A DNA stretch of 64,000 bases, taken from the NCBI GenBank assembly GCA_964187785.1, contig OZ076409.1:73224001-73288000 (forward strand), in the 5' to 3' direction. The notes under the pieces are model-generated. The model searched no databases, was not told the origin of the DNA, and saw only the letters and a program-made list of their open reading frames with translations. This DNA comes from Amphiscolops sp. MND2022. Its lineage: Eukaryota. Both the position numbers and the translations under genes were made by a program. This document shows positions 2,761 to 62,958 of this stretch, one piece after another. Position 1 is the first letter of the stretch. Each line of letters opens with the position of its first letter.

Positions 2761-3030
2761 GCCAATCGTTTGAGTTATAATAAAAAAAAACGTCTTTTTT
2801 GGCAAGAATTCCATACCATAAATAATAATCATGTTCCATATAAGAAGCGAATCATTTGAGATATATACCCTGTTCATTTTTTTAATATTACCGATTATTA
2901 ATTTAATAGATGTTTTGAATGTGAGCTTCCTAAAAGGTTCAGGTGTGATGATACGTAAATAGAACCTTAGTTTCATCGAAATCTCAATTGAATATGTCCA
3001 ATCTTAACCATCAGATAACAAGAAACACTT

Positions 3031-3073
3031 AAGTACATTGCATCTCCCCATCGGGGGAGATGAGAATGTACTT
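3031..3073 (+). other. Bulged hairpin H1 (AAGTACATTC-CATCTCCCC-atcg-GGGGAGATG-A-GAATGTACTT consensus)
   Basis: An inverted repeat with one extra A in the right arm; this copy has one mismatch. Other copies: 7800-7841, 12572-12612, 17325-17367, 24074-24116, 30831-30871, 42714-42756, 46817-46859, 56713-56751. Confidence 0.85.
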
Positions 3074-3893
3074 TCGAGAAGCCAAATACGTCCAACATTC
3101 AAACTTTTGTAACTTTGTATGTAACTCCTGAAACGAAGAAGGAATAAAATTGTTTCTGGTACATACATGAGTCTTTACTTCAGCTTCTATTTCTGCTGAA
3201 CAAAACCATTCGACTCTTTTGCCGGAGTTAAGATCGATTGTTTTACCCAGTGAACAAAGGCATGACTGAAAACGTTTACTACTTTGTTCATAATTTTCCG
3301 GCCTTCCGAAATGATGAAACGTCCACATAACTAAGATAGCAAGTGAATGACTGCGAAATGCACCTTATTAGATGAGGTAAATAACGTGTAAAACTCTCCT
3401 TTATCCTAACATGAGGTTGAGTAATGATCATTTGAGAATAGTTTGATATGTGAATACAATAGTATAAAACAAGTACATTTTATATGAATAACGCCGTGGA
3501 AAGCGTTCAGAAAGGACAGTAGGCTTGTTTGGAACATGTATGTGTGGTGTCCCTTGGTGGCGTTCGCTTAGTGTATATGTCGAGGGGTATTCGAGTTGTT
3601 ATGATAGAATTTACACACAAGTCTTTTGTTTTTTGGTTTTTTTTACAATGTCGTTAAGTACCTGCATTCTATCCCCTTCTCAGAGATGATGTGAAGTTAC
3701 GTTTGCTAAATAAATGTCATCGAAAGATCACACTCCCGACGAAATTAACTATCTTAACACGTGTTTAGAATTTTAAATAAACAACCGTATAACATTTTTA
3801 TATTTCATTGAGTTTGATGAAGTCTTTTGTTCTTCTCACTACTATTTCAACCAATACACATATCCGTTACCATATCACATGTCTCCATTAGTA

Positions 3894-4009
3894 CAACGCC
3901 ACATAGCGTTCCGACGCCCACAGTCTGTGGGCATGCCGAGGCATGCCCTTCGACGACGTATGGCAAATGGAGCCATGCCCGCCGTCTTTACGGCGGTAGC
4001 GGCTAGGTG
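3894..4009 (+). other. Conserved 3'-terminal module plus junction (first of 23 copies)
   Basis: The sequence runs ACAACGCCACATA..CGACGCCCACAGTCTGT-GGGCATGCCGAGGCATGCCC-TTCGACGACGTATG..hairpin..GCTAG|GTG. It is shared by all unit families, including those with dissimilar interiors. Confidence 0.92.
3929..3948. promoter_or_regulatory. 20-bp palindrome matching the p53-family response element (RRRCWWGYYY x2, no spacer); 23 copies
   Basis: GGGCATGCCG|AGGCATGCCC matches 19/20. Copies start at 3929, 8699, 13462, 18222, 20210, 24971, 26962, 31721, 33716, 35703, 37678, 39662, 41656, 42959, 47714, 49711, 51700, 53683, 55669, 56945, 58930, 60913 and 62881. The palindrome is certain; p53 binding is inferred. 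Confidence 0.55.
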
Positions 4010-7000
4010 GGGGGATATATCTCCACTTTTTTTGCGACCGCGGGTAGGGTCCTGTCGGGAGCTTCTATTTACCAAGCTTACGGCGCTATATACTAGAGAA
4101 AATTTTTCCGGCACCGAACTTTTTTTTGAACCATAGGATTTGTACCATTTTTTGCATGCGGCCCTAATTTGGGCATACAAGACGAAGTTCCTGCTGACGT
4201 TAAGCGATGGTTTCATTGTGTAACGAGATATGGCCACTTTTTGGTGCGATTTTTGAGGTATTTTTGAGAAACTTTTTACAAACAGCTCGAATGCAAAAAA
4301 CTGAAAAACTTGTGACAATCAACCTATCACTGGTTTAAACCTTCGATTCTTTGCCCTAGCAATGCACTAGACCCAAAAGATCTAAAACTTTTACATTTTT
4401 CAAAAATTTGACCAAATTGACTCGGGTTTCACTACTATATGTAACCAATGTGACAAAAACACCTCACAAAAAAAATTTTTATTTGCTTAAATTTAGAAAT
4501 CGTGGTATCCATGGTTTCTGTCGGAACCTACTCGCAGCCAAACACTCAACAGTTTGCATCCAATGTGAATATAAAATTTTTTTCGAGGTCATAGGTGTTT
4601 CACAAGGATTTCACAACTTAGTTTCAATTTACAAATTGGTCATTTTCAACATCATATTTCCATCGAGGCATGTCGGATAGAGTCTTATTGCTCACGAACA
4701 GTCCTACTGGCAACGTATTAACCATTTATAGAATTACAAAGTTTTAAAAAAAATTTTTCACCCGTTCTTCAGTCATTTTTCAGACATTCGGAACTTATCT
4801 TAGAAAAATTTCGTCTCAAAAACCCATTTTTTGTCAGGTCGAAAACTCAAATTCAGCTTTTTAAGCACAATTAATAACTCTGACGTAACCAGTGGGGCCC
4901 ATGATACTCAAAACAACGATTGGGGTTGGTACCATTGGCTCAAATAACATATGAGTCGCGATAAGACGTTATTTTTAGCCATACGTCTCAATTGAGGTTA
5001 ACATCTCGCAAGCCAGGGATCTCTGTGAAATGTGATTTCATCAAAAAGTTACCCATTTTCGCCAATTACTATGTGCACAGAGTGCGTAGGGTGAGTTTCA
5101 GCACTATAATGAGGTTTTTGAAGGATTCGGGTTGCTCAAAGGGTGGTATGAGACATTTTTTTCCCATATACTACTGTATTTTCCAAAAATTTTAGCCCAT
5201 TTTCTGGAAAAACTAACTTGACAAAATACTTTCAGTTACTCTATTCGAAGCTTAGAATATAGATGAACACTGTGGTTGATCAGAAACTATTAACTATTTT
5301 GTTTTTAGAAAAAAACTGCCTTGCATGTGTTACATTAGTGGCAGGAAAAATACCAGTAGCTCCAAAAATCAAAAATTTGGACGGACAGACTTCCAATGAT
5401 GCAAAACAAAAACGTTTCAACAACTTCTGACGCCACTTTTTTTACCCAAGAGGTTCGAAAACACCATTAACAATGCTGACATTCGCAATAAATAAGATCG
5501 AGGTCTATTTACTAACACTTAGGTTTTAAATTTTTTTCTCGGAAACCCATTATTGTCAGGTCGCAAATTCAAATTTGGTTTTGGAAGCAATACTTTTCAC
5601 TCTGAAGCAAACCGATGGGCCCAAAATACTCAACAACAACAAAAAGACTATCACCATATGCTCTAATAACATATGAGATGCGACTGTATGTTTTTAACAC
5701 AATAACTCTCATTCTGAAGTAAACATGTTGAAAGCCTTGAATCACCGTGAGAAGTGATTTCATCAAAAAATATTTCTTTTTCGTCAATCACTAAATACAC
5801 AGAACCCGTTGTGTTAGTTTCAGTCGTGAAATGAGGTTCTACCGTAATATCGGTTGCTCAAGGTGTTGTATAAGGCAAAAACTTCCTCTTTTCTACTAAC
5901 TTCTTCAAATACTTCAACCCTTTGTCACACGAAGTTAATATTCAAAATCTCTTTGAATTGTTTCTTAAGGTTGTGGTGAATTGTTAGAACAATTACTATG
6001 ATCGAAGAATGCTAGTATTGGTGTTTGGACCATGTCCGGATGAACAAATCGCAAAATCAAGAAAAAATTGTTTCCTTTTTTGGTTATTTTGGCAGTACTA
6101 AAAATGTTAGCTGATAAATAATTTTTTCGAAGGCACCATTGGATTCCGCTCAAAAAGTTGATTATAAGACATGTGTAATAACCCCGTATCTTTTCAATTT
6201 AAATAAATTTAAAAAGCAAACTTTTTTGACGAAAATCCTAAAAATCATACCATTTCCTAAAAAATTTCAAATGCACTCCATTTGACGTATAAGAATAGCA
6301 CAGAAAACTATCATATACCGATCAACTCTACTCCCATTGTAGACTATTAGAATTTTGTTTTGATTGAATTTTGAAGAATATTAAAAAAATTTGAACCCTC
6401 CAAAAATGGACCAAAATTACACGAAAAAATTGACCTTAAAATTTTAAAATGTCAAAAAATCATCAAAACCACAGCTTCTTGGGGTTCTATCAACTCCACG
6501 TGGTCCACAGAGTACGCTAAAACAGGTTTTACCCGTTTTTGAGCAATATGTGAAAAAGCCGACATTTTTGGGAAAGAAAAACATACCATTTCCTAAAATA
6601 TTTCAAATGCACGCCATTTGCCGTATGAGAATAGCACAGAAAACTATCACATACCGATCAACTCTACTTTCATTGTAGATGATTAGAAGTTAGTTTAAAT
6701 GAAAATTAGACGGATAATAAAAAATTATAAATCCTCCAAAAGTGGGCAAAAATTACACGAAAAAATTGTCCTTAAAATATTAAAATGTCGAAAAATCATC
6801 AAAACCACAGCTTATTGGGGTTCTATCAACTCCACATGGTCCACAGAGTACGCTAAAACAGGTTTTACCCGTTTTTGAGCAATATGTGGAAAAGCCGACA
6901 TTTTTGGGAAAGAAAAACATAACATTTCCTAAAAAAATTCACATGCACGCCATTTGGCGTATAAGAATAGCACAGAAAACTATCATATACCGATCAACTC

Positions 7001-8775
7001 TACTCCTATTGTAGATTATTAGAACTTTGTTTTGAATGAATTTTGATGGATAATAAAAAATTTTGAACCCTCCGAAAATGGGCTAAAATTACACGAAAAA
7101 ATTGACCCTAAAATTTTAAAATGTCTAAAAATCATCAAAACCACAGCTTCTTGAGGTTCTATCAACTCCACATGGCCCACAGAGTATGCCAAACCAGGTT
7201 TTGCGCGTTTTTGAGCAAAATTTAGGAAAGCCGATTTTTTGAGGAAGAAAAACATATCATTTCCTAAAAAACTTCAAATGCACGCCATTTGGCGTATAAC
7301 AATAGCACAGAAAACTATCACATACCAATCAACTCTACTCTTTTTGTAGATTACCAGAAGTTTGCTTAGAATAACTTTTGATGAATATTTATAAATTTTA
7401 AACCCTCCTAATATGGGCCAAAATCACACGGAAAAATTGACCCTAAGTATTAAAATGTCAGATATTCATCAAAACCCCAGCTTCTTGGGGTTCTATCATT
7501 TCCATATGACTTTCAGAGTATACCAAACAAGTTATTAACATTGGGCGATAATTAAAAAGACCAATTTTATTCTGAAGAAAACCATAATATGTTCAATATA
7601 AGAAGTGAATCATTCCACATATATACCCTGTCTAATATTCTAAATTAGCAAAAAAATATATACTTGATGTTTTTCGAATGTGAGCTTCATAAAAGGTTGA
7701 GATGTGATAATACGTAAATGGATTCCAAGTTTCATCGAAAAGTCAATGGAATACGTCCAATCAACTTCAATCTTAACAATTCGATAACAAAAAACACTTA
7801 AGTACATTCCATCTCCCTATCGGGGAGATGAGAATGTACTTTTCAAAAACTAAAAACTTAGATCTTTCTATCTTTTGTAACACTTACTGTAACAGCTGAA
7901 ATGATGAAAGAATAATTATTCTTCTAATAACTTCAAGATTTTTTGCTTCACCTTTTATTTCTGCATAACAAAACCATAAGACATACATATTTTTCGCAGT
8001 TAAGTTCGACTGTATTACCCAGTGAACAAAGGTATGACAGGAAGATTACAAGTTGTCTCAAAACTTTCCCGCCTTCCAAAATCATGAAACGTCTACACAA
8101 CCAAGATAGTAAAGGAATGAATGTGGAATGCATCATTTTAGTTAAAATAAATAACGTGTAGAACTTACCTTTATCTGAAGATGACGTTGATTTATGATCT
8201 TTAGAGGATAGTTCAATTTTTGACCATAATAGTGCGAAACTAATTATTATATGAATAATGGCGTGGAAAGCGTTCAGAAATTGCAGTATTTTCGATTCGA
8301 GCATGTATGCGTGGGTTCCTTTGGTGGCATTAGCTTAGTGTACATGATGGAAGTTTTCGGTCTATTATGATAAAATTTACTCACAAGTCTTTGTTTTTCC
8401 TATTTTCTTATGCCATTAAGTACATTCATTCTATCCCCTTCTCTGGGAATGTACGTTTGCCAAATGACTGTCATCCAAATTTTGCATTCGCGAAGAGTTT
8501 AAAAACATAAACACGTCTTTAGCGTTTCCAAATCACAACCGATTAACATTTTTTAAATTTTTTTTTAATGAAAATTGATAATTTGTTTTGATTTTGGTAT
8601 CTTCTACTTTTATCATCCATCATAACAAGCACCTTACCATGTCTCTCGCTTGTCTTCATTTTACAACGCCACATAGCGTTCCGACTCCCACCGTCTGTGG
8701 GCATGCCGAGGCATGCCCTTCGACGACGTATGCCAACTACTTTTTATATCTACACCCGATTGCGGTAGCGGCTAG
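4007..8775 (+). mobile_element. Unit 1: long class, subfamily C (4769 bp) with divergent 5' leader
   Basis: Bounded by GCTAGGTG junctions. It starts GTGGGGGGATATATCTCC and has 336-bp repeats at ~6240-7520 and H1 at 7800-7841. Confidence 0.75.
6240..7520 (+). repeat. Internal 336-bp tandem repeat (~3.8 copies)
   Basis: Same monomer as 1470-2760 (AAAATCATACCATTTCCTAAAAA...GGGGTTCTATCAACTCCACGTGGTCCACAGAGTA). Confidence 0.88.
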
Positions 8776-11700
8776 GTGGGCGGGGGTAATTCCCCAACAA
8801 AAAAATCGGCCGGCGGGTCGGGTCCTGCCGGCCGTCCAAAATCAAAATCCTCCTAGTAGAAAACGGCATGTCAAACGAGCTATTTTTTTATTTAACCATT
8901 AGAATTTCACCATTTTTTGCATGCGGCCCTGAAATGGCCATACGAGACGAAGTTCCTGCTGACGTTTTGCGATGTAAATGTTTTATAAAAAGTTATGGCC
9001 GATTTGTCATTCACCTAGAAGGGTAAAATGAGGAAAATTTTAACAAAGTCGCTGATAACTCAAAATGTGTTAATTTTTGGACTTTGACTGTGAAACAAGC
9101 TTGGAACCTTCATTTCGTGGCTGTGGCATTGCACTGAACGCAAAAGATGTAAAGTTTTTACATTTTTTGAAAATTTGACATTTTTGAAATTTCTTTCACT
9201 ACTATCAGTATCATATATGTCAAAAACACCTCAGAAAAAAAATTTTATTTGCTTTAACTTGGAAACCTTGGTATCCATGGTTTCTGTCGGAACCTACTCG
9301 CAACCAAACAACCAACAGTTTGCATCCAATGTGAAAATAAAAACTTTTTCTGGGTCATAAGCGTTTCACAAGGATTTCTCAACTTAGTATTAATTTACAA
9401 AATGGTCATTTTGAACACAATATTTTCATCGAGGCTTGTCGGCTATAGCCTTAATGTTCTAGAACGGTCCCACTGGCAACGTAGGAACCATTTATAGTAA
9501 TAGAAAGTTTAAAAAAATATATTTTCACCCTGTCTTCAGTCATTTTTCAGTCATTCGGAACTTAACTTAGAAAAATTTCGACCAAAATACCCATTTTTTG
9601 ACAGATCGAAAATTCAAATTCAACTTTTTAAGCAAAATTATTAACTCTGACGTAACCAGTGGGGCTCATGATACTCAAAAACACGATTGGGACTGGTACC
9701 AATGGCTCCAATATCATATGAGCCGCGATAAGACGTTATTTTGAGCAATACGTCTCAATTGAGGGAAACATCTCGCAAGCCTGGGATCACAGTTAAAAGT
9801 GATTTCGTCAAAAATTTACTCTTTTTCGTCTATCACTATGTACACAGAGTGCGTAGGGTGAGTTTCAGCACTATAATGCGGTTTTTGAAGGAATCGGTCT
9901 GCTCAAGGGGTGGTATGAGACATTTTTTTTTGCATGTAGTACTATATTTCCTAAAACTTTTAGCCCATTATCTCGAAAAGCTCACTTCGCAAATTACTTT
10001 CAGTTACTCTATTCGAAGCTTAGAATATATATGAACACTGTGGTTGATCAGAAACTCTTGACTATTTTGTTTTTGGAAAAAAACTGCCTTGCATGTGTTA
10101 CATTAGTGGCAGGAAAAATACCAGTAGCTCCAAAAATCACAATTTTGGACGGACAGACCTGCAATGATGCAAAGCAAAAACGTTTCAACAACTTCTGGCG
10201 CCACTTTTTTTACCCAAGAGGTTCGAAATTACTATTAACAATGCTGACATTCGCTATATATAAGATCGAGGACAATTTACTAACACTTAGGTTATACATT
10301 TATATCTGAGAAACCATTCTTTGTCAGGTCGCAATTTTAAATTTAGTTTGGGAAGCAATACTTTTCACTCTGAAGCAAACCGTTGGGCCCAAATTACTCA
10401 AAAACTACAAAAAGACTGTCACCAAATGCCCTAATAGCATATGAGATTCGACCGTATGTTTTTAACACAAAAACTCTCATCCGAAGTAAACATGTTGAAA
10501 GCCTTGAATCACCGTGAGAAATGATTTCATCAAAAATATCCCTTTTTCGTCAATCTTTATCTACACAGAACACGTTGTGTCATTTTCAGCCGTGAAATGA
10601 GCTTCTACCGTAATATGGGTTGCTCAAGGTGTTGTATAAGACAAAAACTTCCTCTTTTCTACTATCTTCTTCAAATATTTCAACCCTTTGTCACAAGAAG
10701 TTAATATTCAAAATCTCTTTGAAATGTTTCTTTAGGTTGGTGTGAAGTGTTAGAACAATAATTAAGATCGAAGAATGATAGTATTGGTGTTTGGACCATG
10801 TCCGGATGAACAAATTGCAAAATCATGAAAAATTTCTTACCATTTTTGGTCATTTTGTCAGTACTAAAAATGTTAGCTGAAAAAGAATTTTTTTGATGGC
10901 ACCATTGGATTCCTCTCAAAAAGTTAGCTATATGAACTGTGTAATAACCCCGTATCTTTTCAATTTAAATAATTTTAAAAAGCAAACTTTTTTGACTAAA
11001 ATCCTAAAAATCATACCATTTCCTAAAAAATTTCAAATGCCCCCCATTCGACGTATAAGAATAGCACAGAAAACTATCACATACCGATCGACTCTACTTC
11101 CATTGTAGATTACCAGAATTTTGTTTAGAACAATTTTTGACGGATGCAAAAAAATTTAAACCCTCCAAAAAAGGGCCAAAATTACACGAAAAAATTGACC
11201 TTAAAATTTTAAAATGTCGAAAAATCATCAAAACCACAGCTTCTTGGGGTTCTATCAACTCCACGTGGTCCACAGAGTATGTTAAAACAAGTTTTACCCG
11301 TATTTGAGCAATATGTGAAAAAGCCGACTTTTTTGGGAATGAAAAACATACCATTTCCTAAAAAATTTCAAACGCACCCCATTTGACGTATAAGAATAGC
11401 ACAGAAAACTATCACATACCGATCGACTCTACTTCCATTGTAGGTTACCAGAATCTTGTTTAGAACATTTGTTGACGGATGCAAAAAAAAATAAAACCCT
11501 CCAAAAATGGGCCAAAATTACACGAAAAAATTGACCTTAAATTTTTAAAATGTCAAAAAATCATCAAAACCACAGCTTCTTGGGGTTCTATCAACTCCAC
11601 GTGGTCCACAGAGTATGCTAAAACAGGTTTTACCTGTTTCTGAGCTATATGTGAAAAAACCGACATTTTGGGGAAGAAAAACATACCATTTCCTAAAAAA

Positions 11701-13538
11701 TTTCAAATGCACGCCATTTGCCGTATGAGAATAGCACAGAAAACTATCACATACCGATCAACTCTACTTCTATTGTAGATTATCAGATTTTTGTTTAGAA
11801 CAAATTTTTATGGATATAAAAAATTTTTAAACCCTCCAAAAATGAGCCAAAATAACACGAAAAAATGGACCCTAAATTTTTAAAATGTCAAAAAATTATC
11901 CAAACCACAGCTTCTTGGGGTTCTATCAGCTCCACGTGGTCCACAGAGTATGCTAAAACAGGTTTTGCCCGTTTTTGAGCAGTATATGAAAAAGCCGACA
12001 TTTTTGGGGAAGAAAAACATACCATTTCCTAAATAATTTCAAATGCAGGCAATTTGCCGTATGAGAGTAGCACAGAAAACTATCACACACCGATCAACTC
12101 TACTTCTTTTGTAGATTATCAGAATTATGTTTAGAGTAAAGTTTTATGGATATGAAAAATTTTTATACCCTCCAAAAATGGGCCAAAATGACACGAAAAA
12201 ATTGACCTCAAATTTTTAAAATGTCAAAAAATTATCCAAACCACAGCGTCTTGGCGTTCTATCAACTCCAAATGACCTTCAGAGTATACCAAACCAGGTA
12301 TTGCCAATCTTTTGAGCAATATTTAAAAACACCGACTATTTGGCAAGAACACCATAATATGTTCCATATAAGAAGTGAATCATTCCACATATATACCCGG
12401 TCTAATATTTTCAAATTAGCGATAACATTAATACATGATGTTTTTTGAAAGTGAGCTTCATAAGAGGTTGAGATGTAATAATACGTAAATGGACCCTAAG
12501 TTTCATTGAAATCTCAATGGAATACGTCCAATCAACTTCAATCCTAACTATTATATAACAAGAAACACTTGAGTACATTCCATCTCCCCATCGGGGGAGA
12601 TGAGAATGTACTTTTCAAAAGCCAAAATTTTCGAATTTTAAATCTTTTGTAACATTGTATGTAACTGTTGAAACGATGAACGAATAAAAATGCTTCTAGT
12701 ACCTTCATCAATTTTTGCTTCAGCTCCTATTTCTGCAGAACAAAACCAAAAGACACACTTACAGCAGTTAAGTTCGATTGTATAACTCAGTGAATAAAGG
12801 TATGACTGAGGAAGTTCACAAGTTGTTTCAAAAGTTTCCGGCCTTCCAAAATCATGAAACGTCCACACAACCAAGATAGCAAGTGAAAGAATGCTGAATG
12901 CACCTTATTAGATGAGATAAATAACGTGTGGAACTTGCCATTATCTTAAGATGACGTTGATTTATGATCTTTTAAGGATAGTTCGATATGTGACCACAAT
13001 AGTGGAAAACTTATTACTATTTGAAGAACACCGTGGAAAGCGTTCAGAAAGGACAGTATATTTGTTTCGAGCATGCATGCGTGTGTTCCTTTGGTGACGT
13101 TAGCTTAGTGTACATGACGGAGGTATTCGAGAGATTATGATAGAGTTTACTCACAAGTCTTTGTTTTTTAAAACTTTCTATGCCGTTGAGTACATTCGTA
13201 AGGTACATCCATCCCCTTCTCTGGGAATGTACGTTTGCCAAATGACTGTCATCCAAAATTCGTAATCCGGACGAGTTTAACTACATAAACATGTGATGAG
13301 CGTTTTCTATTCAAAACCGAATAACTTTTTTTTTCTCGAAAATGATGATGGTTTTGATTTTGATGTCTTCTACTTTTATCATCATGCAAACGACCTTACC
13401 ATGTCTCTCTTCTGTCGTCATTTGTACAACGCCACATAGCGTTCCGACGCCCACCGTCTGTGGGCATGCCGAGGCATGCCCTTCGACGACGTATGCCAAA
13501 TGAGCCATACCCGCACTCTGGAGTGCGGTAGCGGCTAG
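8776..13538 (+). mobile_element. Unit 2: long class, subfamily B (4763 bp)
   Basis: Junction-bounded and a near-copy of 27034-31797. 3' hairpin CCGCACTC-tg-GAGTGCGG. Confidence 0.75.
11007..12300 (+). repeat. Internal 336-bp tandem repeat (~3.8 copies)
   Basis: Same monomer as 1470-2760. Confidence 0.88.
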
Positions 13539-16500
13539 GTGGGCGGGGGTAATTCCCCAACAAAAAAATCGGCCGGCGGGTCGGGTCCTGCCGGCCGTCC
13601 AAAATCAAAATCCTCCTAGTAGAAAACGGCATGTCAAACGAGCTATTTTTTTATTTAACCATACGAATTTCACCATTTTTTGCATGCGGCCCTGAAATGG
13701 CCATACGAGACGAAGTTCCTGCTGACGTTTTGCGATGTAAATGTTTTATAAAAAGTTATGGCCGATTTGTCATTCACCTAGAAGGGTAAAATGAGGAAAA
13801 TTTTAACAAAGTCGCTGATAACTCAAAATGTGTTAATTTTTGGACTTTGACAGTGAAACAAGCTTGGAACTGTCATTTCGTGGCTGTGGCATTGCACTGA
13901 ACACAAAAGATGTAAAGTTTTCACATTTTTTGATAATTCGACATTTTTGATTTTTTTTTCACTACTATCAGTACACTATATGTCAAAAACGCCTCTGAAA
14001 AAAATTTTTATTTGCTTAAAATTAGAAACCTTGGTATCCATGGTTTCCGTCAGTACCTACTCGCTGCCAAACGCTCAACAGTTTGCATCCAATGTGAAAA
14101 TATAATTTTTTTCGAGGTCATAGGTGTTTCACAAGGATTTCTCAACTTAGTATCTATTTACAAATTGGTCATTTTGAACCCATTATTTTCATCGAAGCGT
14201 GTCAGATACTACCCTAATGCTCACGAATGGGCCTACTGGCAACGTTGGAACCATTTTTAGTAATAGAAAGTATTAAAAAAATATTTTCACCCGGTCTTCA
14301 GTCATTTTTCAGACATTCGGTACTTAACTTAGAAAAATTTCGCATCAAAAACCCATATTTGGTAGGGTCGAAATTTGAAATTCAGTTTTTTATGCAAAAT
14401 TATTAACTCTGACGTAACCAATGGAGCCCATGATACTCAAAAACACGATTGGGACTGGTATCAGTGGCTCCAATAACATATGAGCCGCGATAAGACGTTA
14501 TTCAGAGCAAACGCTCTAAATCGAAGTAAACATCTCTGAAGCCTGGGATCACAGTGAAATGTGATATCACCAAAAGTTTACTCTTTTTTGTCAATCACTA
14601 TGTACACAGAGTGCGTAGGGTGAGTTTCAGGACTATAATGAGGTTTTTGAAGTAATCGCGCTGCTCAAGGGGTGGTATGAGACTATTTTTTCCCATATAC
14701 TACTACATTTCCATAAATTTGCAGTCCATTGTCTTGGAAAGATAACTTCACAAAAACAATTTTTCTACTCTATTCAGTTATTAGAATAAAGTTGAACACT
14801 GTGGGTGATCAGAAATGCTCAATTCTTTTGGTTTTTAAAAAAAGTCCTTCGCATTCGTTACATTTGTGGAAGGAAGGTTATCAGTAGCTCCAAAAAAAAC
14901 GAAATTTAGCACGAACAGACATGCAACGATGCAAAGCAAAAACGTTTTTACAACTTCCGACGTCATTATTTTACCCAAGAAGTTCGAAAATATCATTCGC
15001 AATGCTGTCATTCGCTATATATACGATCGCGGTCAATTTACAAACATTTAGATTTCATTGTTCTGCTTGAAAACCAATTTTTGTCAGGTCGAAATTTTAA
15101 ATTTTACCTGGGGAGCAATACCCTTCACGCTGAAGTAAACAGTGGGGCCCAAGTTACTCAAAAACAAGAAAGAGACTGCTACAATATGTCCTAATAACAT
15201 ATGGACCACGATAGTACGTTTTTCACACAAAAAACTCTCATCCGAAGTAAATATGTTGAAAGCTTTTAATCACCGTGAGAAGTGATTTCATCAAAAAATA
15301 ACTCTTTTTTGTCAATCACTATTTACACAGAATTTGTAAAGTTAGTTTGAGTCATGAAATGAGGCTTTACCGTAATATGGGTTGCTCAAGGTGTTATATA
15401 AGACAAAAACTTCCTCTTTTCTACTAGCTTCTTCAAATATTTCAACCCTTTGTCACAATAAGTTAATATTCAAAATCTCTTTGAAATGTATCTTTATGTT
15501 GGGGTGAAGTCTAAGAACAATAACTATGATCGAAGAATGCTAGTACTGGTGTTTGAACCATGTCCGGATGAACAAATCACAAAATCATCAAAAAATTGTT
15601 CCCTTTTTTGGTTATTTTGGCAGTACTAAAAATGTTAGCCGATAAATAATTTTTTCGATGGCACCATTGGATTCCTCTCAAAAAGTTGGTTATATGACCT
15701 GTGTAATAACCCCGTATCTTTTCAATTTAAATATATTTAAAAAGCCAACTATTTTGACCAAAATCCTAAAAATCATACCATTTCCTAAAAATTTTCAAAT
15801 GCACCCCATTTGACGTATAAGATAAGCACAGAAAACTATCATATACCGATCAACTCTACTCCTATTGTAGATTATTAGAATTTTGTTTAGAATGAATTTT
15901 GATGAATAATAAAAAAATTTTGAACCCTCCAAAAATGGGCCAAAATTACACGAAAAAATTGACCTTAAAATACCAAAATGTCAAAAAATCATCAAAACCC
16001 AGGCTTCTTGGGGTTCTATCAACTCCGCGTGGTCCACAGAGTATGCTAAAACAGGTTTTACCCGTTTTTGAGCAATATGTGAAAAAGCCGACATTTTTGG
16101 GAAAGAAAAACATACCATTTCCTAAAAAAATTCAAATGCACGTCATTTGCCGTATTAGAATAGCACAGAAAACTATCACATACCTATCAACTCTACTTTC
16201 ATTGCAGATGAACAGAATTTTGTTTAGAATAAATTTTACCGGATAATAAAAAAATTTGAATCCTTCAAAAATGGGCCAAAAATGCACGAAAAAATGGACC
16301 TTAAAAATTTAAAATGTCAAAAAATCATCAAAACAACAGCTTCTTGGGGTTCTATCAACTCCACGAGGTCCACAGAGTATGCTAAAACAGGTTTTACCCG
16401 TTTTTGAGCAATATGTGAAAAAGCCGACATTTTTGGGAAAGAAAAACATACCATTTCCTAAAAAAATTCAAATGCACGCCATTTGCCGTATGAAAATAGC

Positions 16501-51771: not shown

Positions 51772-53754
51772 GTGGGCGGGGGTAATTCCCCTTCAAAAAA
51801 TTCGGCCGGCGGGTTGGGTCCTGCCGGACGTCAAATAGTGTGAAACATCCAGTAGGAAACGGCGACATAAATCAGCGATTTTAAAATTTAACCGTTAGAA
51901 TTCGGACTTGGAGTGCATGCGGCCCCAAAATTCCCATACGAATCGAAGTTCCTGCTGACGTTAAGCGATAAAAACATTTTATAAAAAGTTATGGCCCATT
52001 TTACGTTCACCTATGAGGGTAAAATGAGGAAAATTTTTACAAAGTCGCTGATAACTCAAAATACATTGTTTTTTGGCTTTTGACTGTGAAACAAGCTTAG
52101 AACCTTCATTTCGTGGCTGTGGCATTGCACTGAACACAAAAGATGTTTAGTTTTTACATTTTTCGAAAATTCGACATTTTTGATTTTTTTTTCACTACTA
52201 TCAGTACACTATATGTCAAAAACACCTCTGAAAAAAATTATTATTTGCTTAAAATTAGAAACCTTGGTATCCATGGTTTCTGTCGGAACCTACTCGCTGC
52301 CAAACACCCAACAGTTTGCATCCAATGTGAATTTAAAATTTTTTTCGAGGTCATAAGGGTTTCACAAGGTTTTCATAACAAAGTATTAAACTACAAACTG
52401 GTCATTTTCAACATAATATCTTTGTCGAGGCATGTCGGATATAGTCCTATTGCTCACGAACGGTCCTACTGGCAACGTAATAACCATTTATAGAAATGTA
52501 AAGTTATAAAAAAAATTTTCACCCGGTCTTCAGTCATTTTTCAGTCATTCGGAACTTAACTTAGAAAAATTTCGACCAAAATATCCATTTTTTGTCAGGT
52601 CGAAAAATCAAATTCAGATTTTTAAGCAAAATTATTGACTCTGACGTAACCCATGGGGCCCATGATACTCAAAACAACGATTGACACTGGTATCAATGGC
52701 TCCAATAACATATGAGTCGCGATAAGACGTTATTTTGAGCATTACGTCTCAATTGAGGTAAAGATCTCGCAAGCCAGCGATCACTGTGAAATGTAATTTC
52801 ATCAAAAATTTACTCTTTTTTGTCAATCACTATGTGCACAGAATGCGTAGGGTGCGTTTCAGCACTATAATGAGGTTTTTGAAGGCATCGAGTTGCTCAA
52901 GGGTTGGTATGAGACACTTTTGTCCCATATACTACTGTATTTTCCAAAATTGTTAGCCCAATATCTGGAAATACAAACTTGACAAAATACTTTCAACTAC
53001 TTTATTCAAAGGTTACATTATAGATGAACACTGTGGTTGATCAGAAACTTTCATCTCTTTCGTTTTCCGAAATATTTCCCTTCGCATGTGTTACATTCGT
53101 AGCAGAAAAAAAAATCGAAACTGAAAAATACGCAATTTTGCTAATATAGAATCGCAATGATTGTGCCTAAAAACTCTTTAAACACTTCTAACGTAACCTT
53201 ACGCACCCAAAATGATCGAAAATGCTATTCACAATGGTGACATGTGCTCTTTCTACGATCCTGGCTGGACAAGGTTTGCATATTTTTCAAGTACCTGTCA
53301 GCTAAATCTTGTGATAGCCTTTTCAGTTGGCCTTGTGTCAACTTGGGAAGGCTATCACATCAAAAAACCATCAACAAAAATAATTTTTGTTTATTGGATC
53401 TTACAGTCGATACTTTTTTTCGTGATTCTATACTACCGTTAGTATATTTCCTCAGGTCACCTTACGATTGCATTCAGTCTTTGATAAAAACCTATGAACT
53501 CAAAGTCACATTTTTATATTTTTTTGCCAAAAAAAACATCAAAAATATCTAAAATATATAAAATAGAGTCTAACATTTTTACATTTCAAGTTTCTGCCGT
53601 TATTAGGCCCATCAACTTCCTACAGCCAGGCTCTCTGTCATACTGTACAACGCCACATAGTGTTGCGACGTGCACGGTCTGTGGGCATGCCGAGGCATGC
53701 CCTTCGACGACGTATGCCGAATACCGCGGGCCTACGCCCGCGCTCCCCGGCTAG
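51772..53754 (+). mobile_element. Unit 17: 2-kb class, family S (1983 bp)
   Basis: Junction-bounded, with H2 at 53313-53356. Confidence 0.75.
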
Positions 53755-55740
53755 GTGGGCGGGGGTAATTCCCCAACAAAAAAATCGGCCGGCGGGTCGG
53801 GTCCTGCCGGCCGTCCAAAATCAAAATCCTCCTAGTAGAAAACGGCCGGTCAAACGAGCTATTTTTTTGTTTAACCGTTAGAATTTGGTTTTAGATTGCA
53901 TGCGGCCCTAAAATCCCCATACGAATGGAAGTTCCTGCTGGCGTTAAGCGATTGAAATAATATATAAAAAGTTATGGCCCATTTTTGGGTCAACGAGAAG
54001 GTCAAAATGAAGAAAATTTTAACTAAGTTGCTGATAACTCAAAATGTGTTAATTTTTGGACTTTGACTGTGAAACAAGCTTGGAACCTTCATTTCGTGGC
54101 TGTGGCATTGCACTAAACACAAAAGATTTAAAGTTTTCACATTTTTTGAAAATTCGACATTTTTGAATTTTTTTTCACTACTATCAGTACACTATATGTC
54201 AAAAACACCTCTGAAAAATTTTTTTATTTGCTTAAATTTAGAAACCTCGGTATCCATGATTTCCGTCAGTACCTACTCGCTGCCAAACACTCAACAGTTT
54301 GCATCCAATGTGAAAATAAAATTTTTTTCGTGGTCTTAGGTATTTCACAAGGATTTCTCAACTTAGTATCAATTTACAAATTGGTCATTTTGAACACATT
54401 ATTTTCATCGAAGCGTGTCATATACCGCCCTAATGCTCACGAACGGGCGTACTGGCAACGTTGGAACCATTTATAGTAATAAAAAGTTTTTAAAAAAATT
54501 TTTCAACCCGTCTTCAGTCATTTTACACACTTTCGGAACTTAACTTAGAAAAATTTCGTCTCAAAAACCCATTTTTTGTCAGGTCGAAAACTCAAATTCA
54601 GCTTTTTAAGCACTATTATTAACTCTGACGTAACCAGTGGGGCCCATGATACTCAAAACAACGATTGGGGTTGGTACCATTGGCTCAAATAACATATGAG
54701 TCGCGATAAGACGTTATTTTTAGCTATACGTCTCAATTGAGGTAAACATCTCGCAAGCCAGGGATCTCTGTGAAATGTGATTTCATCAAAAATATACTCA
54801 TTTTTGTCAATCACTATGTGCACAGAATGCGTAGGGTGCGTTTCAGCACTATAATGAGGTTTTTGAAGGCATCGAGTTGCTCAAGGGGTGGTATGAGACA
54901 TTTTTGTCCCATATATTACTGTATTTTCCAAAATTTTTAGCCCAATATCTGGAAATACAAACTTGACAAATTACTTTCAAATACTTTATTCAAAGGTTAC
55001 AATATAGATGAACACTGTGGTTGATCAGAAACTTTCATCTCTTTCGTTTTCCGAAAAAATTCCCTTCGAATGTGTTACATTTGTAGCAGGAAAAAAACCG
55101 AAACTAAAAAATACGCGTTTTTGCTGAGATAGAATCGCAATGGTTACGCCTAAAATCTTTTTAAAAACTTCTAACGCGACCTTACGGACCCAAAATGATT
55201 GAACATGTCAATCAGAATGCTGACATGTGTTCTATCTACGATCATGGTTGGACAATTTTTGCATTATTTTCAAGTACCTGTTAACTGAATCTTGTGATAG
55301 CCTTTTAAGTTGGCCTTGTGTCAACTTTGGAAGGCTATCACATCAAAAAATGATCAACAAAAATGCTTTTTGTTTATACAATGTTGTTTTCGATAAACAT
55401 TTTTGCGATTCTAAGCTACTGTTAGTACCTTTCATGAGGTCAGCTAACGATAGCATGCAGTCTCTGATAAAAAATTATGAACTCAATTACATTTTTCTAA
55501 ACTTTTTCATTGAGAAAAGTACAAATAAATAAAAACAATATAAAATTCTAATCTCAAACAACTATAAATTGTTTGTTTTTCACCGTAATCAGTTTACGAC
55601 CCATCACCCTATGTCACGGCACCGTCATTAGTACAACGCCACATAGTGTTGCGACGTGCACAGTCTGTGGGCATGCCGAGGCATGCCCTTCGACGACGTA
55701 TGCCGAATACCGCGGGCCTACGCCCGCGCTCCCCGGCTAG
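53755..55740 (+). mobile_element. Unit 18: 2-kb class, family S (1986 bp)
   Basis: Junction-bounded, with H2 at 55296-55339. Confidence 0.75.
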
Positions 55741-57018
55741 GTGGTCGTTAGCATGGGATTTTCTTTATGAGCGTAGTCCACTTTTTTTAGGCCGGGGTAG
55801 GGTCCCGGGCCGTTACCAATTTCTTACGGAGGAAAAATGTGAAAATCTGCGAGTTTAAAAAATTGGCCCGTACGATTTGGCTGAAAATTGGCATACAGCA
55901 TCGTCTTGGTAAACAAATGACTTTGTCCTAGTGACATTTTGCCCAGAAAATTCAAAAAGTTGGTCAAATTGAAAATTTTTTGACCGTCTAAGGCTAAAAT
56001 TTGACTTTTTCGCTTTTTTTGGTCAATTTCCTCAGAACTGGTTGATTTTGGTGAAGTAAGTCATGAGAGGTTATAAGGTCTGCAAATAGCCATCAATTGG
56101 CTTGCATAATCAGATTTTGTCAAAAGTGTTTAGTTTTTTCAAAATTTCACACTTTTTTTTCATTTCAGTGTTTTTTGATACAATTTATTGAATTTTTACT
56201 AAGTTCCACTAAATATTTTTAAAATGTTTTTAAAAAACCTTTTTTTGCACGTTTTTGATGTTTTTTGCTCTCCCATATAGGTTTTCGCATACGGGGAACC
56301 TGAATCTGACAACGAAATAATTTTATTCCGCAGTTCAACTTACGCCATTTTTAATAGTGAAAAATCACTCATTTTCAATCTAACGAGTGAAAATATCAGA
56401 ATTTAAAAACCTAAAGTTGAGTTTAAGGCGACTTACAGGTAGAAACAAATGCTCAGAAACAAACTGATTTCTTGTATTAGCTAAAGAAAGCCTTCAAAAT
56501 TCTTTTTACTTTCTTTAAATCAAAATTCGACACTTTCCATGAAATTTGTCAGTGGAAAAAATTTATCATTTTTTAAATTAAAAACTTGCTTTGTTGGTCA
56601 TTTCCGTTAGTCATTAGTAGCTGTGTAATGCTCCAAAGCCTTTCAAGTTCTTTTGACCCTATTTGAAAACTTTTGATACTGCATAATCAATCCGAGAGAA
56701 CGAAACAGTTGTGTACATTCCATCTCCCTCTTGGGGGAGATGAGAATGTACTTCCTAAAGTCCAGGTACTACAGATCATATTTGGTTTTATGCGACGCCC
56801 TCTATGCTAGTGCATATAAATACAAGTTGTTTGGCTGGATTTTGCTTCTGACTTGACGTATACTGTACGTTTGGTACTGACAATACCCATCATTTACATA
56901 ACAAACGTCAACGCCACATACCCTTACCAACGCCCATAGTCCGTAGGCATGCCGAGGCATGCCTTTCGACGACGCGCGCCAAACACAAGCGCGCCCGCAC
57001 TTTTGCGGTAGCGGCTAG
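55741..57018 (+). mobile_element. Unit 19: 1.3-kb class (1278 bp), distant relative of unit 13
   Basis: Starts GTGGTCGTTAGCAT, with H1 at 56713-56751 and the palindrome variant AGGCATGCCGAGGCATGCCT. Confidence 0.72.
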
Positions 57019-59001
57019 GTGGGCGGGGGTAATTCCCCAACAAAAATTACGGCCGGCGGGTTGGGTCCTGCCGGACGTCAAATAGCAGAAAATACCTATT
57101 AGGAATCGGCGACACAAAATCGCTATTTTTAAATCTAACCACAATTTTTTGGACTTGGAGTGCATGCGGCCCTGAAATGCCCATACGAATCGAAGTTCCT
57201 GCTGACGTTAAGCGATTGAAATAATATATAAAAAGTTATGGCCCATTTTTCACTCACAAAGAAGGGTAAAATGAGGAAATTTTTAACAAAGTCGCTGATA
57301 ACTCAAAATGTGTTAATTTTTGGACATTGACTGTGAAACAAGCTGGGAACCTTCATTTCGTGGCTGTGGCATTGCACTGAACACAAAAGATGTAAAGTTT
57401 TTACATTTTTTGAAAATTCGAAATTTTTGAAATTTTTTTCACTACTATCAGTACCCCATATGTCAAAAACGCCTCAGAAAAAATTTTTTATTTGCTTTAA
57501 ATTGGAAACCTTGGTATCCATGGTTTCTGTCGGATCCTACTCGCAGTCAAACACCCAACAGTTTGCATCCAATGTGAATTAAAAATTTTTTTCGGGGTCA
57601 TAAGCGTTTCACAAGGATTTCTCAACTTAGTTTCAATTTACAAATTGGTCACATTGAACACATTATTTTCATCGAAGCGCGTCAGATACCGCCCTAAAGC
57701 TCACGAACGGTCCTACTGGCAACGTAGCAACCATTTATAGTAATATAAAAGATTAAAAAAATTTTTTCACCCGGTCTTCAGTCATTTTTCAGTCATTCGG
57801 AACTTAACTTAGAAAAATTTCGACCAAAATACCCATTTTTTGTCAGTTCGAAAAATCAAATTCAGATTTTAAAGCAAAATTATTAATTCTGACGTAACTC
57901 ATGGGGCCCATGATACTCAAAACAACGATTGACACTGGTATCAATGGCTCCAATAACATATGAGTCGCGATCGGACGTTATTTTGAGCAATACGTCTCAA
58001 TTGAGGTAAAGATATCGCAAGCCAGCGATCACTGTCAAATGTGATTTCATCAAAAATTTACTCATTTTTGTCAATCACTATGTGCACAGAATGCGTAGGG
58101 TGCGTTTCAGCACTATAATGAGGTTTTTGAAGGCATCGAGTTGCTCAAAGGATGGTATGAGACATTTTTGTCCCATATACTACTGTATTTTCCAAAATTT
58201 TTAGCCCAATATCTGGAAATACAAACTTGACAAAATACTTTCAACTACTTTATTCAAAGGTTACAATATAGATGAACACTGTGGTTGATCAGAAACTTTC
58301 ATCTCTTTCGTTTTCCGAAATATTTCCCTTCGTATGTGTTACATTTGTAGCAGAAAAAAAATCGAAACTGAAAATACGCTATTTTGCTAATATGGAATCG
58401 CAATGATTGTGCCTAAAAACTTTCTAAATACTTCTAACGCAACTGTACAGACCCAAAATGATTGAAAATGCCATTCACAATGCTGACATGTGCTCTTTCT
58501 ACGATCCTAACTGGACAAGTTTTGCATATTTTTCAAGTACCTGTTAACTGAATCTCGTGATAGCCTTTTAAGTTGGCCTTGTGTCAACTTGGGAAGGCTA
58601 TCACATCAAAAAACCATCAACAAAAATAATTTTTGTTTATTGGATCTTACAGTTGATACTTTTTTTCGTGATTCTATACTACCGTTAGTATATTTCATCA
58701 GGTCACCTTACGATTGCATTCAGTCTTTGATAAAAACCTATGAACTCAAAGTCACATTTATATATTTTTTTGCCAAAAAAAAACATCAAAAATATCTAAA
58801 ATATATAAAATAGAGTCTTTAACATTTTTACATTTCAAGTTTCTGCCGTTATTAGGCCAATCAACGTCCTAGAGCCACATCCTGTCATACTGTACAACGC
58901 CACATAGTGTTGCGACGTGCATAGTCTGTGGGCATGCCGAGGCATGCCCTTCGACGACGTATGCCGAATACCGCGGGCCTACGCCCGCGCTCCCCGGCTA
59001 G
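57019..59001 (+). mobile_element. Unit 20: 2-kb class, family S (1983 bp)
   Basis: Junction-bounded, with H2 at 58559-58602. Confidence 0.75.
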
Positions 59002-60984
59002 GTGGGCGGGGGTAATTCCCCAACAAAAATTACGGCCGGCGGGTCGGGTCCTGCCGGACGTCAAATAGTGTGAAACATCCAGTAGGAAACGGCGACATAA
59101 ATCAGCGATTTTAAAATTTAACCGTTAGAATTCGGACTTGGAGTGCATGCGGCCCCAAAATGCCCATACGAATCGAAGTTCCTGCTGACGTTAAGCGATA
59201 AAAACACTTTATAAAAAGTTATGGCCCATTTTACGTTCACTTAGAGAGGTAAAATGAGGAAAATTTTAACAAAGTTGCTGATAACTCAAAATACAATAAT
59301 TTTTGGCTTTTGACTGTGAAACAAGCTTAGAACCTTCATTTCGTGGCCGTGGCATTGCATTGAACACAAAAGATGTAAATTTTTTAAATTTTTTGAAAAT
59401 TCGACATTTTTGATTTTTTTTTCACTACTATCAGTACCCGATATGTCAAAAACACCTCAGAAAAACATTTTTATTTGCTTTAAATTGGAAACCTTGGTTT
59501 CCATGGTTTCTGTCGGAACCTACTCGCAGCCAAACACTCAACAGTTTGCATCCAATTTGAAAATAAAATTTTTTTCGGGGTCATAAGCGTTTCACAAGGA
59601 TTTCTCAACTTAGTATTAATTTACAAAATGGTCATTTTGAACACAATATTTTCATCGAGGCTTGTCGGCTATAGCCTTAATATTCTAGAACGGTCCCACT
59701 GGCAACGTAGGAACCATTTATAGTAATAGAAAGTATTTAAAAAATATTTTCACCCGGTCTTCAGTCATTTTTCAGTCATTCGGAACTTAACTTAGAAAAA
59801 TTTCGACCAAAATACCCATTTTTTGTCAGGTCGAAAATTCAAAATCAGATTTTTAAGCAAAATTATTAACTCTGACGTAACCCATGGGGCCCATGATACT
59901 CAAAACAACGATTGACACTGGTATCAATGGCTCCAATAACATATGAGTCGCGATAAGACGTTATTTTGAGCAATACGTCTCAATTGAGGTAAAGATCTCG
60001 CAAGCCAGCGATCACTGTGAAATGTGATTTCATAAAAAATTTACTCATTTTTGTCAATCACTATGTGCACAGAATGCGTAGGGTGCGTTTCAGCACTATA
60101 ATGAGGTTTTTGAAGGCATCGAGTTGCTCAAAGGATGGTATGAGACATTTTTGTCCCATATACTACTGTATTTTCCAAAATTTTTAGCCCAATATCTGGA
60201 AATACAAACTTGACAAAATACTTTCAACTACTTTATTCAAAGGTTACAATATAGATGAACACTGTGGTTGATCAGAAACTTTCATCTCTTTCGTTTTCCG
60301 AAATATTTCCCTTCGCATGTGTTACATTTGTAGCAGAAAAAAAATCGAAACTGAAAAATACGCTATTTTGCTAATATGGAATCGCAATGATTGTGCCTAA
60401 AAACTTTTTAAATACTTCTAACGCAACTGTACAGACCCAAAATGATTGAAAATGCCATTCACAATGCAGACATGTGCTCTTTCTACGATCCTAACTGGAC
60501 AAGTTTTGCATATTTTTCAAGTACCTGTTAACTGAATCTCGTGATAGCCTTTTAAGTTGGCCTTGTGTCAACTTGGGAAGGCTATCACATCAAAAAATTT
60601 TCAACAAAAATACCTTTTGTTTATTGGAAATGACAGTCGATATATAATTTCGTGATTCTATACTACCGTTAGTACCTTCCATTAAGTCACCTGACGATTG
60701 CATTCAGTCTTTGATAAATACCTATGAACTCGAAGTCATATTTATAATTTTTGTGCTAAAAATAAACATCAAAATTATCCAATTTATTTAAAATTGAGTC
60801 TTTACCGTTTTTGTTTTACTTTTTCTACTGTTATTAGGCTCATCAACTTCCTACAGCCACGCTCTCTGTCATTAGTACAACGCCACATAGTGTTGCGACG
60901 TGCACGGTCTGTGGGCATGCCGAGGCATGCCCTTCGACGACGTATGCCGAATACCGCGGGCCTACGCCCGCGCTCCCCGGCTAG
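59002..60984 (+). mobile_element. Unit 21: 2-kb class, family S (1983 bp)
   Basis: Junction-bounded, with H2 at 60543-60586. Confidence 0.75.
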
Positions 60985-62958
60985 GTGCGGGGGGGTAACC
61001 CCTACAAAGATATTGGAGGATTCGGGTAGGGTCCTGAATCCGAGTTCAGTGCTGCCAGCTATCGTTAGGGATTTTAGAAAATTTTGCCGATCTCGTGATC
61101 TAACCGTAGGATTTTAAAGTTGGAGCGGCCCCCACCAGATTTTCCAAAGTTATTCGCCCCCCACCGGGTTCCAGCGTGATTGAAATATTTTGACGGGGTA
61201 CACGGGCGACCGTTAGGGGTCATTTTGGGGGTAAAATTTATATCCGGTCGCATAACTTTTTTCCTGTTGGTTTAAAACTTTGGGACCCTGCTAAAAGTTT
61301 CTTGACCGTGTTGCAGTGGCTCCGGAGGTCCAAACCAAATTTTTCTATCTTGAAGCTATCTCCAAGTACCCCCCCGCCCAAACCGTTATTTTTCCGGAAA
61401 CGCAGGTTTTTGACCCGGAAGGAGTCGTCTGAGCGCGGGGTCGTTAGGTGATGTATTGGGGACGGCCTTGAGACGAAGCGGGGGACATGTAGTTTGCCGA
61501 CCCCTGTTTACCCCCCGGACGGGAAATGACCGTTATTTGAGCGGGAAAAATGCCCCCCTCCACGTTTTACCGCTATTTCCGGTGTGAAGGAGTGGGAGTA
61601 GCGCGTCGGGTGTTATATAACAAAAGTAGGTTTAGACAAGGACCAATCGGAAACATGTGGTTTGGGACCCCCAGGCCCAACCCGTTAGCGGGAAATGGGG
61701 CTTCCGCCTCCTTTTTTTACTGCTAAAACCTTAAAATGGGCATTGAGGGGTAAATATCTCGTGAACGCGTGGAGCTACGGTGTCCATCACTACTACAAGG
61801 TTTCATACCCATGATATGGTGCCTTCAGGGGGGCAAACAGATTTCCGCTATCTATCGCCGTTACCGACTTGGCCCCCCAGCCTAACCGCTATGTGACCGG
61901 AAATGTCACTTTTTGAGCCCAAAGGGTCGGTCCCAGCCAGGGAACGTTAGGTAACTTATTGTACTACTCAATGAGACGAGTTGGGGGACATAGTTTCAGT
62001 CACCCCCCGTTACCCCTTGGGACCGGAAATGACCGTTATGTGGGTAAAATTGCAATATATGTACTTTTTAAAGGACTTTTAGATGCGGAAGGAGTGGTAA
62101 TAGGTGCTTGGACACTATATGATGATAGGGAGGACGTGAGGCGAGCATTCGGAAATAACCGTTATGTTGACCCTGAAGTCCCCCTGGTACCGGAAGTGAC
62201 CCGTAATGGTCAAATTTTGTGTTTAAAGGGTACAAATGTTTGGTGTTTTTTGGATAACAGTACCTATTAGGTGTTTCGACGGTCTGCAGTCGTGAACATA
62301 GTCATGAAACCTTGTGGGGGGTAACGGTATATAGCACCTTAAGTGCAAACCGTTGGAGACAGGATAAGTTTTTTGGTTTTAAAATGTCTTTCGGCCTACT
62401 TTTGTTGACTATTATGGACTATTTTTGAAAAAAAAAGTTTTTCCATATAGTTTCAGAGACTCCGAAACCTCAACCAACATAACCGTTACCTTATGATAGC
62501 CTTTCAAGTTGGCCTGGTGTCAACTTGGAAGGGCTATCCTTCAAAAATCATTAATCAAGTGTGTTTTTGAGTATGTTTGTTTTACTTTAGAATCAATTAG
62601 AGCTTCAAGAAAAGTTTGCCAACGATAAAAACTATGTCGTGATGATTCCGTTATTAGAATAATAGTTAACAAAATATTGATAAAGTTGATTTTTTACATT
62701 TCAAATGTGTCCTAAATGCCAGAAAAACTCTTTACCAAACAAATGGTATTGATTGGATTGTATATAACAGCTAATAAAAGTTCAAATTGAATATTACGTT
62801 TCATTATGGAAGCTGAAACGTCAAATTATAGTTTAATTAACGTCAACGCCACATACTTTACATCAACGCCCACCGTCTGTGGGCATGCCGAGGCATGCCC
62901 TTCGACGACGTATACCAAATTCCTCCAACACAACACCCTCGAGCGCGGTAGCAGCTAG
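60985..62958 (+). mobile_element. Unit 22: 2-kb class, family D (1974 bp)
   Basis: Diverged homologue of unit 10, with H2 at 62495-62538. Confidence 0.75.

Follow-up and report, generated by a model that had tools for sequence, protein, structure and literature searches.

The stretch analysed here, called the window below, comprised 64,000 nucleotides of contig OZ076409.1 (positions 73,224,001 to 73,288,000) and was occupied over its whole length (1..64000) by a head-to-tail array of non-coding units on the + strand, in which 22 full and two partial units (U00-U23) followed each other without spacers. Each unit end in the array possessed a 20-mer of the p53-family type, which lay inside a longer conserved 3' module and was followed by an 8-bp junction core at which one unit passed into the next. 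The initial annotation of this DNA had concentrated on the 20-mer, which is real and had been partly overstated, while the system surrounding it is the more unusual part.

Array of mixed units and their junctions

Three size classes of about 1.3, 2.0 and 4.76 kb were revealed among the full units, six of which measured 4761-4769 bp, twelve 1983-1997 bp, two 1971/1974 bp and two 1278/1301 bp. The two units of 1971/1974 bp had a GC-richer body, unrelated to that of the main 2-kb family, and the units of 1278 and 1301 bp were 52.5% alike overall. Unrelated bodies could fall in one size class, as in the comparison of 35781-37751 with the 2-kb family, for which 39741-41727 and 53755-55740 give an example of a family pair. 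The order of the classes was random, with neighbours of the same class in 9 of 23 cases (p=0.47), and CpG was undepleted in the window (observed/expected 0.99).

The invariant junction core GCTAGGTG was found 23 times on the + strand and 0 times on the - strand. The example GCTAG|GTG lies at 4002..4009 (+), and the other cores, all on the + strand, start at 8771, 13534, 18295, 20283, 25044, 27029, 31793, 33789, 35776, 37747, 39736, 41723, 43024, 47787, 49784, 51767, 53750, 55736, 57014, 58997, 60980 and 62954. Unit boundaries mapped inside this core. U03 (13539..18299, +) and U05 (20288-25048) differed at 1 of 4761 bases and had different neighbours on both sides; their identity ended 5 nt beyond the 5' end, and that of the pairs U04/U09 and U17/U21 ended 3 nt beyond the 3' end, which confined the unit boundary to the eight bases of GCTAG|GTG. 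Since near-identical copies stood between different neighbours, units seem to use each other's junctions as insertion sites, which indicates that they are copied whole and then placed at junctions that already exist.

Bodies were also mosaic, which, judging from the comparison of units, is the mark of gene conversion. In U14 (43029-43350), a U04/U11-type 5' end was joined to a U03-type body; read from this arrangement, U14 is a product of recombination between size classes, inside their common first 1.37 kb.

Conserved 3' module and the p53-family-type 20-mer

The 20-mer was identified 23 times, always on the + strand, between 3929 and 62900 (example 3929..3948, +), and 0 of 100 shuffles gave a match. 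Its other copies, also on the + strand, start at 8699, 13462, 18222, 20210, 24971, 26962, 31721, 33716, 35703, 37678, 39662, 41656, 42959, 47714, 49711, 51700, 53683, 55669, 56945, 58930, 60913 and 62881. The form GGGCATGCCGAGGCATGCCC was present in 20 copies, AA stood at the centre of two (18222, 24971), and one (56945) read AGGCATGCCGAGGCATGCCT, with an outer pair of A...T. In every size class, and in all of the 23 ends, 50-59 bp separated the 20-mer from the junction that follows it. The initial annotation, which had reported 23 copies in 64 kb in all families, placed about 50-60 bp before each junction and with exactly these variants, was borne out in all of this, and no other variants were found.

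The window was scanned with two RRRCWWGYYY decamers whose C/G cores were required to be intact. The scan gave 0 sites without mismatch, 23 with one, still 23 with two and 26 with three, and a Markov model of the window produced one such site in 1.92 Mb. All 23 copies agreed with the consensus at 19 of 20 positions, with a spacer of 0 and CATG in both cores, and the sole mismatch was position 10, a purine in every copy (G in 21, A in 2). The former description as a near-perfect p53-family element agrees with the 19/20 fit and the intact cores; the site does not consist of two perfect decamers. There was one site per unit, built of two GGCATGCC half-sites at 10-bp spacing; two self-palindromic CATG half-sites with this spacing have the geometry of the p53 tetramer, which counts for a p53-type reading. 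For a random 9-bp arm to fit RRRCWWGYY, p was about 4e-4.

Variation in the 20-mer was restricted to positions 1, 10 and 20, which in the account of Brandt et al. (PMC2807882) had no significant effect on binding of the human, mouse, frog, fish and fly proteins. Whether variants follow the p53 matrix or dyad symmetry alone had been raised as a question, and those of the window gave a divided answer: all lay at the tolerated positions with the C/G cores intact, and the double change was also symmetric. The pattern, made up of no more than two or three independent changes, also fits a dyad. On the - strand the centre variants read CTCG and CTTG, which we take to be known compact DNA/RNA loop types, and they reflect a single, uninformative mutation event at a CpG.

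The earlier claim that CATG sites of this kind are of high affinity needs qualifying. For human p53, G/C at positions 3, 8, 13 and 18 marks a lower-affinity class as described in PMC7817693, and the 20-mer has G/C at 4 of these 4 positions. Forms of p73 are reported in PMC3794606 to favour a GGGCA site, and from the laboratory GGGCA full site for p73 presented there the 20-mer differs at the two central bases only.

The whole conserved 3' module (example 3894..3958, +) was composed of box 1 CAACGCCACA at -35 to -37, box 2 CRACGnnCAC at -17, GTCYGT, the 20-mer and TTCGACGACG. A profile of the module (R1) gave exactly 23 strong copies in the window and also recovered L001, a 1172-bp locus of the same anatomy which was the only one returned by a metagenome scan. 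Across these 24 ends, 17 of 20 positions were invariant in the motif, 10 of 10 in the right flank and 7 of 10 in the left flank. The sequence TTCGACGACG (3949..3958, +) was the only 10-mer found in all 24 ends; the dyad symmetry is carried further by it and a GTC to the left (GTC...GAC). Comparison of the 12 units in the 2-kb family gave an invariant run of 40 columns as the longest, consisting of GTCTGT, the 20-mer and TTCGACGACGTATG, and the next one measured 22 (simulated P=0.0008); in the six full 4.76-kb units, which represent three lineages, longer invariant runs lay in the body. The 20-mer had been called the most invariant part of the unit end, which did not hold, as it sits in a rigid block of about 40 bp whose right flank is more constant than the motif itself.

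Box 2 stood at -17 in 24 of 24 ends. The module was rigid internally and floated at 50-59 bp from the junction, which is more in keeping with a factor that acts from a distance than with one held in rigid contact with the cut. Four CRACG repeats were observed on the same strand around the dyad (3894-3921, 3951-3958), iteron-like and roughly helically phased, with spacings of about two and four helical turns; presumably they also resemble KLF/SP and CRE-type boxes. Use of the dyad as a serine-recombinase crossover, through its central dinucleotide, was rejected, because flank haplotypes were linked across it: 12 of 14 left types occurred with one right type and the other two with two close variants.

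The main rival explanation, which is less likely than the favoured one given below and keeps the same mobile elements, is that the 40-bp block with its dyad binds a multimeric protein of the element itself, the p53 fit being coincidental. It would account for flanks that vary no more than the dyad and continue its symmetry to GTC...GAC, for the double change at positions 1/20, which is symmetric and has no intermediate with a single change, and for a position equal to that of the 3' subterminal inverted repeats (subTIRs) of Helentrons (38-60 bp; palindromic in mite HINEs) and of the 3' repeats of FoHeli (38-51 bp). A chance fit of 19/20 to the consensus would then be required, with the correct 10-bp half-site spacing and with the arm probability given above; a matching 5' subTIR was lacking, as the longest subterminal inverted match was 4-7 nt in 22 of 22 units, and the distance to the cut varied over a full helical turn.

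Termini, hairpins and the proposed cycle of movement

All 23 ends in the window had CTAG at the 3' side, and the 5' side began with GTG in 23 of 23. A Helitron-type 3' hairpin (example 3979..3996, +) with a GC-rich stem of 7-8 bp, ending 10-12 nt before CTAG, was present in 18 of 23 ends; stems of 5 bp occurred in two ends and none in three, and the stems differed between families. Another hairpin (example 8807..8834, +) was identified at every 5' end and in L001 (L001:914-946), with compensatory changes in the stem and a fixed, G-rich GGGTNGGGTCC apex, and the + strand was the more stable one in 11 of 11 variants folded. When nine of its sequences were aligned (eight distinct, U13 being excluded for its differing spacing), two-sided changes were found at 4 of 9 pairs, a result given by 0 of 500 shuffles. 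Two internal bulged hairpins completed the set. Hairpin B (example 3033..3071, +) belonged to the 4.76-kb and 1.3-kb classes and to L001 (L001:567-605), and hairpin A (example 41281..41328, +) to both 2-kb families, where some 440-460 bp separate it from the 3' end, with 12 G-T pairs and no A-C pairs on the + strand. They were mutually exclusive, one per unit and linked to size class, and are candidate signals for second-strand priming, packaging or RNA.

For the dyad of the 20-mer, 16 of the 24 ends were aligned, and 8 of 9 pairs never varied, the remaining one having a single two-sided change. Set against the covarying stem of the 5' hairpin, this means that the dyad is kept for its sequence and the other hairpins for their structure. 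This bears on an improbable alternative, in which the dyad folds on a displaced strand or in a transcript into a single-stranded hairpin, with an 8-bp stem and a 4-nt loop, that serves for pausing or recognition. The stem did fold in 7 of 7 ends tested, the double change was compensatory and the other variant fell within the loop. The element's other hairpins, however, swap stem sequence freely between families, which the dyad does not, and a hairpin has no need of self-palindromic arms.

The favoured explanation, which is given about an even chance, is that the units form a group of non-autonomous rolling-circle elements, with a putative origin module read by a host p53/p63/p73-type protein among others. 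As HUH, Helitron-like elements they would be moved in trans by a partner, and the enzyme would nick and rejoin at GCTAG|GTG. Strand displacement would stop at the 3' hairpin, a circle would form whose junction rebuilds the GCTAG|GTG core, and its integration into an existing junction would let mixed same-strand arrays grow, with gene conversion mixing the bodies afterwards. The 3' module would be a double-stranded platform for protein binding. Whether in the array or in the circle, it would precede the nick site by 50-59 bp, so that it could act as an origin activator. A p53/p63/p73-type tetramer site would form the centre of this platform, the phased CRACG repeats would serve either a protein of the element or another host factor, and p53-family activity of the host, in the germline or upon damage, would open or license the origin. 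Non-autonomous elements retain mainly the cis sites needed for movement, and the unrelated bodies had little in common besides the module and the ends. On the sequence evidence, the p53-family reading is plausible and slightly favoured, and both the style of the element and the motif would suit an animal host.

Several observations weigh against a licensed rolling-circle origin of this kind. Conservation was far tighter than the degenerate p53 code requires and extended equally into flanks that are not part of the p53 site, the lone double change retained a symmetry that p53 does not need, and the motif is informed by the few substitution events mentioned above; the 20-mer also belongs to human p53's lower-affinity class (PMC7817693). 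Its location coincides with that of the subterminal palindromes of Helentrons and Helitron2, which lie 38-60 bp from their 3' ends. No autonomous element, empty site or array end was seen within the window, the canonical Helitron 5' TC and A|T target were absent, no perfect 3' stem was found in U01, U13, U22 or L001, and L001 ends in CGAG rather than CTAG. Purified Helraiser, as presented in PMC5876387, forms junctions in vitro without cellular proteins.

Long coding frames recurring as genes were not observed in the window under tables 1, 4 or 6. Among the 32 of 46 open frames scanned against Pfam none reached the cut-off, with no coding remnant and no RepHel seen, and codon periodicity was absent in 15 of 15 windows. 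A tRNA search of the window found none, and the Rfam search gave 0 matches at gathering score in 64 kb and three chance-level matches in 12.2 kb. These Rfam and tRNA results argue against a retrozyme or a known structured RNA, neither a hammerhead nor another Rfam family having been found. Organelle minicircles, group II or spliceosomal introns (with an AG|GT junction) and HeT-A-like retro-arrays were rejected as well, there being no gene modules, no Rfam match and no poly(A) or 5' truncation.

The 4.76-kb class contained an internal tandem repeat of 336 bp in 3.8-4 copies (1473..2739, no strand assigned, an example of seven), and in this and the six other copies the repeat was 2 x 168 bp. A decayed 721-bp duplication was also observed in this class, and one of 503 bp in U10 (36160-36840 region). 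A degenerate module of about 150 bp was common to units with hairpin B (U13 42355-42520, U03 17570-17740, L001:278-396); in U13 and L001 it stood upstream of this hairpin, and in the 4.76-kb class downstream.

Unit length was kept better than sequence. U12 and U18 were separated by 196 substitutions and three indel events, and across 12 within-family pairs the net length change ranged from -6 to +3 bp, even at 35-39 indel events; compensating gaps made by the aligner may inflate this evidence of length conservation. An A-tract phasing of about 10 bp was noted in the bodies, and AA/TT phasing at about 10 bp was stronger than in any of 60 shuffles for 4 of 7 units tested, the other three giving 1/60, 2/60 and 9/60. 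This suggests that length is conserved beyond sequence, for which a length constraint on circles, through packaging or nucleosome count, would be an explanation.

The same features could also belong to a complex macrosatellite maintained by the host (heterochromatic, centromeric or germline), which would concentrate p53-family sites, be shuffled by recombination at the shared box and no longer transpose; in a variant of it, the units would be tyrosine-recombinase cassettes using the 8-bp core. Mosaic bodies, 336-bp repeats, the phasing in most bodies and the near-zero length change agree with it, the asymmetric core resembles a recombinase crossover, and p53 sites clustered in tandem repeats are described in PMC3386156. 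It is nevertheless given a slim chance, as copies were precise, unit by unit, with new neighbours, the ends were of Helitron type with strand-specific hairpins, and the core had none of the 11-13-bp inverted repeats that flank a 6-8-bp core in a tyrosine-recombinase site; the flanks of the core vary.

A bolder proposal, which is doubtful, is that the licensed rolling-circle elements make up an undescribed eukaryotic class, which would form integron-like mixed arrays by insertion at its own junction, have its origin licensed by the host p53 family as a counterpart of SOS-inducible mobile elements, and owe its fixed sizes to a constraint on circle length, for example if a helper virus packaged the circles or if they had to hold an integer number of nucleosomes. 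In the usual view, p53 restrains transposons, and transposon-borne p53 sites are passengers later used by the host. If the site is obligatory in every non-coding family and fixed beside the cut, a transposon would here exploit p53-family activity for its own movement, and one 20-bp site with one junction detectable by polymerase chain reaction would provide a simple test system. An HUH system that inserts into its own 8-bp target would represent a new site-specific integration activity, and the arrays would form dense p53-family binding clusters (23 sites in 64 kb).

Relatives and comparison with known systems

L001 contained hairpin B, the module in its A...T form and a junction, followed by a 5' hairpin of the kind seen in the window, whose stem was again a different one. 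The symmetric A...T variant is shared with U19 (55741..57018, +), a 1278-bp unit. With GCGAG|GTG at its junction (L001:879-886), L001 shows that relatives can lack the T of CTAG. Going by these parts, the anatomy and the tandem junction are present in an independent assembly. Three specific patterns gave 0 matches in viral contigs, where 12 loci matched the bare double palindrome and four the junction plus hairpin, 0 of these 16 having homology in flanks or body; L012 (1303 bp, similar in size to one class) was a coding fragment and a chance match. Prokaryote genomes gave 0 matches, and phages and plasmids no match. Matching content was present in two sequencing runs, with shares of 0.09 and 0.05 and no RNA run among them. 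Contigs of these runs touched 28 of 30 bins (X1) and 19 of 30 bins (X2) over 35600-47900, and their pieces resemble 2-kb, U10-type and 4.76-kb bodies. No junction-bridging piece was counted in X1 or X2 over this region, one candidate having 27 letters on the left against a threshold of 31. Neither the exact motif nor a mixed self-targeting array was found in a literature search whose coverage ended short of Repbase, most subscription journals and supplements, where the family may be catalogued.

The units are Helitron-like at their 3' end, as their termini indicate, and are filed neither with canonical Helitrons, two features of which they lack, nor with Helentrons, whose subTIRs are missing. 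Canonical Helitrons (HLE1; Helraiser/Helibat1, Heli1Xen1) share the 3' CTAG and a palindrome of 16-20 nt about 11 nt upstream, as described in PMC4067079, and their reports mention precise head-to-tail junctions and tandem arrays without target duplication (PMC4067079, PMC5876387, PMC12001565). The HLE1-type 3' CTRR was present in 23 of 23 ends and the 3' palindrome in 18 of 23; instead of 5' TC there was GTG (23 of 23), and instead of A|T insertion all 23 junctions lay in GCTAGGTG, with no solo insertions seen in the window. Further differences from canonical Helitrons are the unrelated families mixed in random order in the array, the bulged hairpins inside the units and the conserved subterminal module with its dyad. 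Helentrons, HINEs and DINE-1, together with Helitron2 (FoHeli), are described as having tandem repeats in the centre of a non-coding body, a hairpin at either end and a palindrome 38-60 bp from the 3' end (PMC4067079, PMC5148889). The units, in contrast, possess no pair of subTIRs or asymmetric terminal inverted repeats (ATIRs), for which 12-15 bp would be expected and 4-7 nt were found, and no T-rich target, and they end in CTAG.

Telomere-targeting Helitrons of Paramecium, a third clade, share non-canonical ends, a fixed target, absolute orientation and satellite-filled derivatives without open reading frames, according to PMC13085455. They are reported there to have a CCAA end and to insert in telomeric repeats, whereas the units here abut without a spacer and appear to have their own junction as target. 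Replitrons, which are eukaryotic HUH elements, have short direct terminal repeats and a right-end hairpin in the description of PMC10288648. The 8-bp core flanks each unit here, which, where the array ends are not included, is indistinguishable from a split junction. Replitrons are described from plants, algae and protists as dispersed elements with 6-bp repeats of the TAAAGG type, and no Rep was seen in the window for comparison. Cryptons, which use a tyrosine recombinase, resemble the proposed system in short direct repeats as crossover sites and in circular intermediates (PMC3212892). Crypton ends are poorly defined; the units differ in an 8-bp core without flanking inverted repeats and in Helitron-like hairpins, and no recombinase was seen in the window. 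Integron cassette arrays have a mixed cassette order, analogous to the array here.

Transposon-borne p53 sites, which the initial annotation had rightly mentioned, are represented by zebrafish EnSpm-N6_DR and by L1, Alu and LTR elements (PMC3485254), and p53-site tandem repeats are reported in mouse introns (PMC3386156); all of them share p53-type decamer pairs carried by repeats. The known transposon sites are family-specific passengers, described as absent from sister EnSpm families (PMC3485254), whereas here one site was present at a fixed terminal position in all families. As the bodies are unrelated, this suggests that the site serves the cycle of the element itself. Tandem Helitron arrays (PMC12001565, PMC5876387) and target-specific Helitrons of a single orientation (PMC13085455) have been reported.

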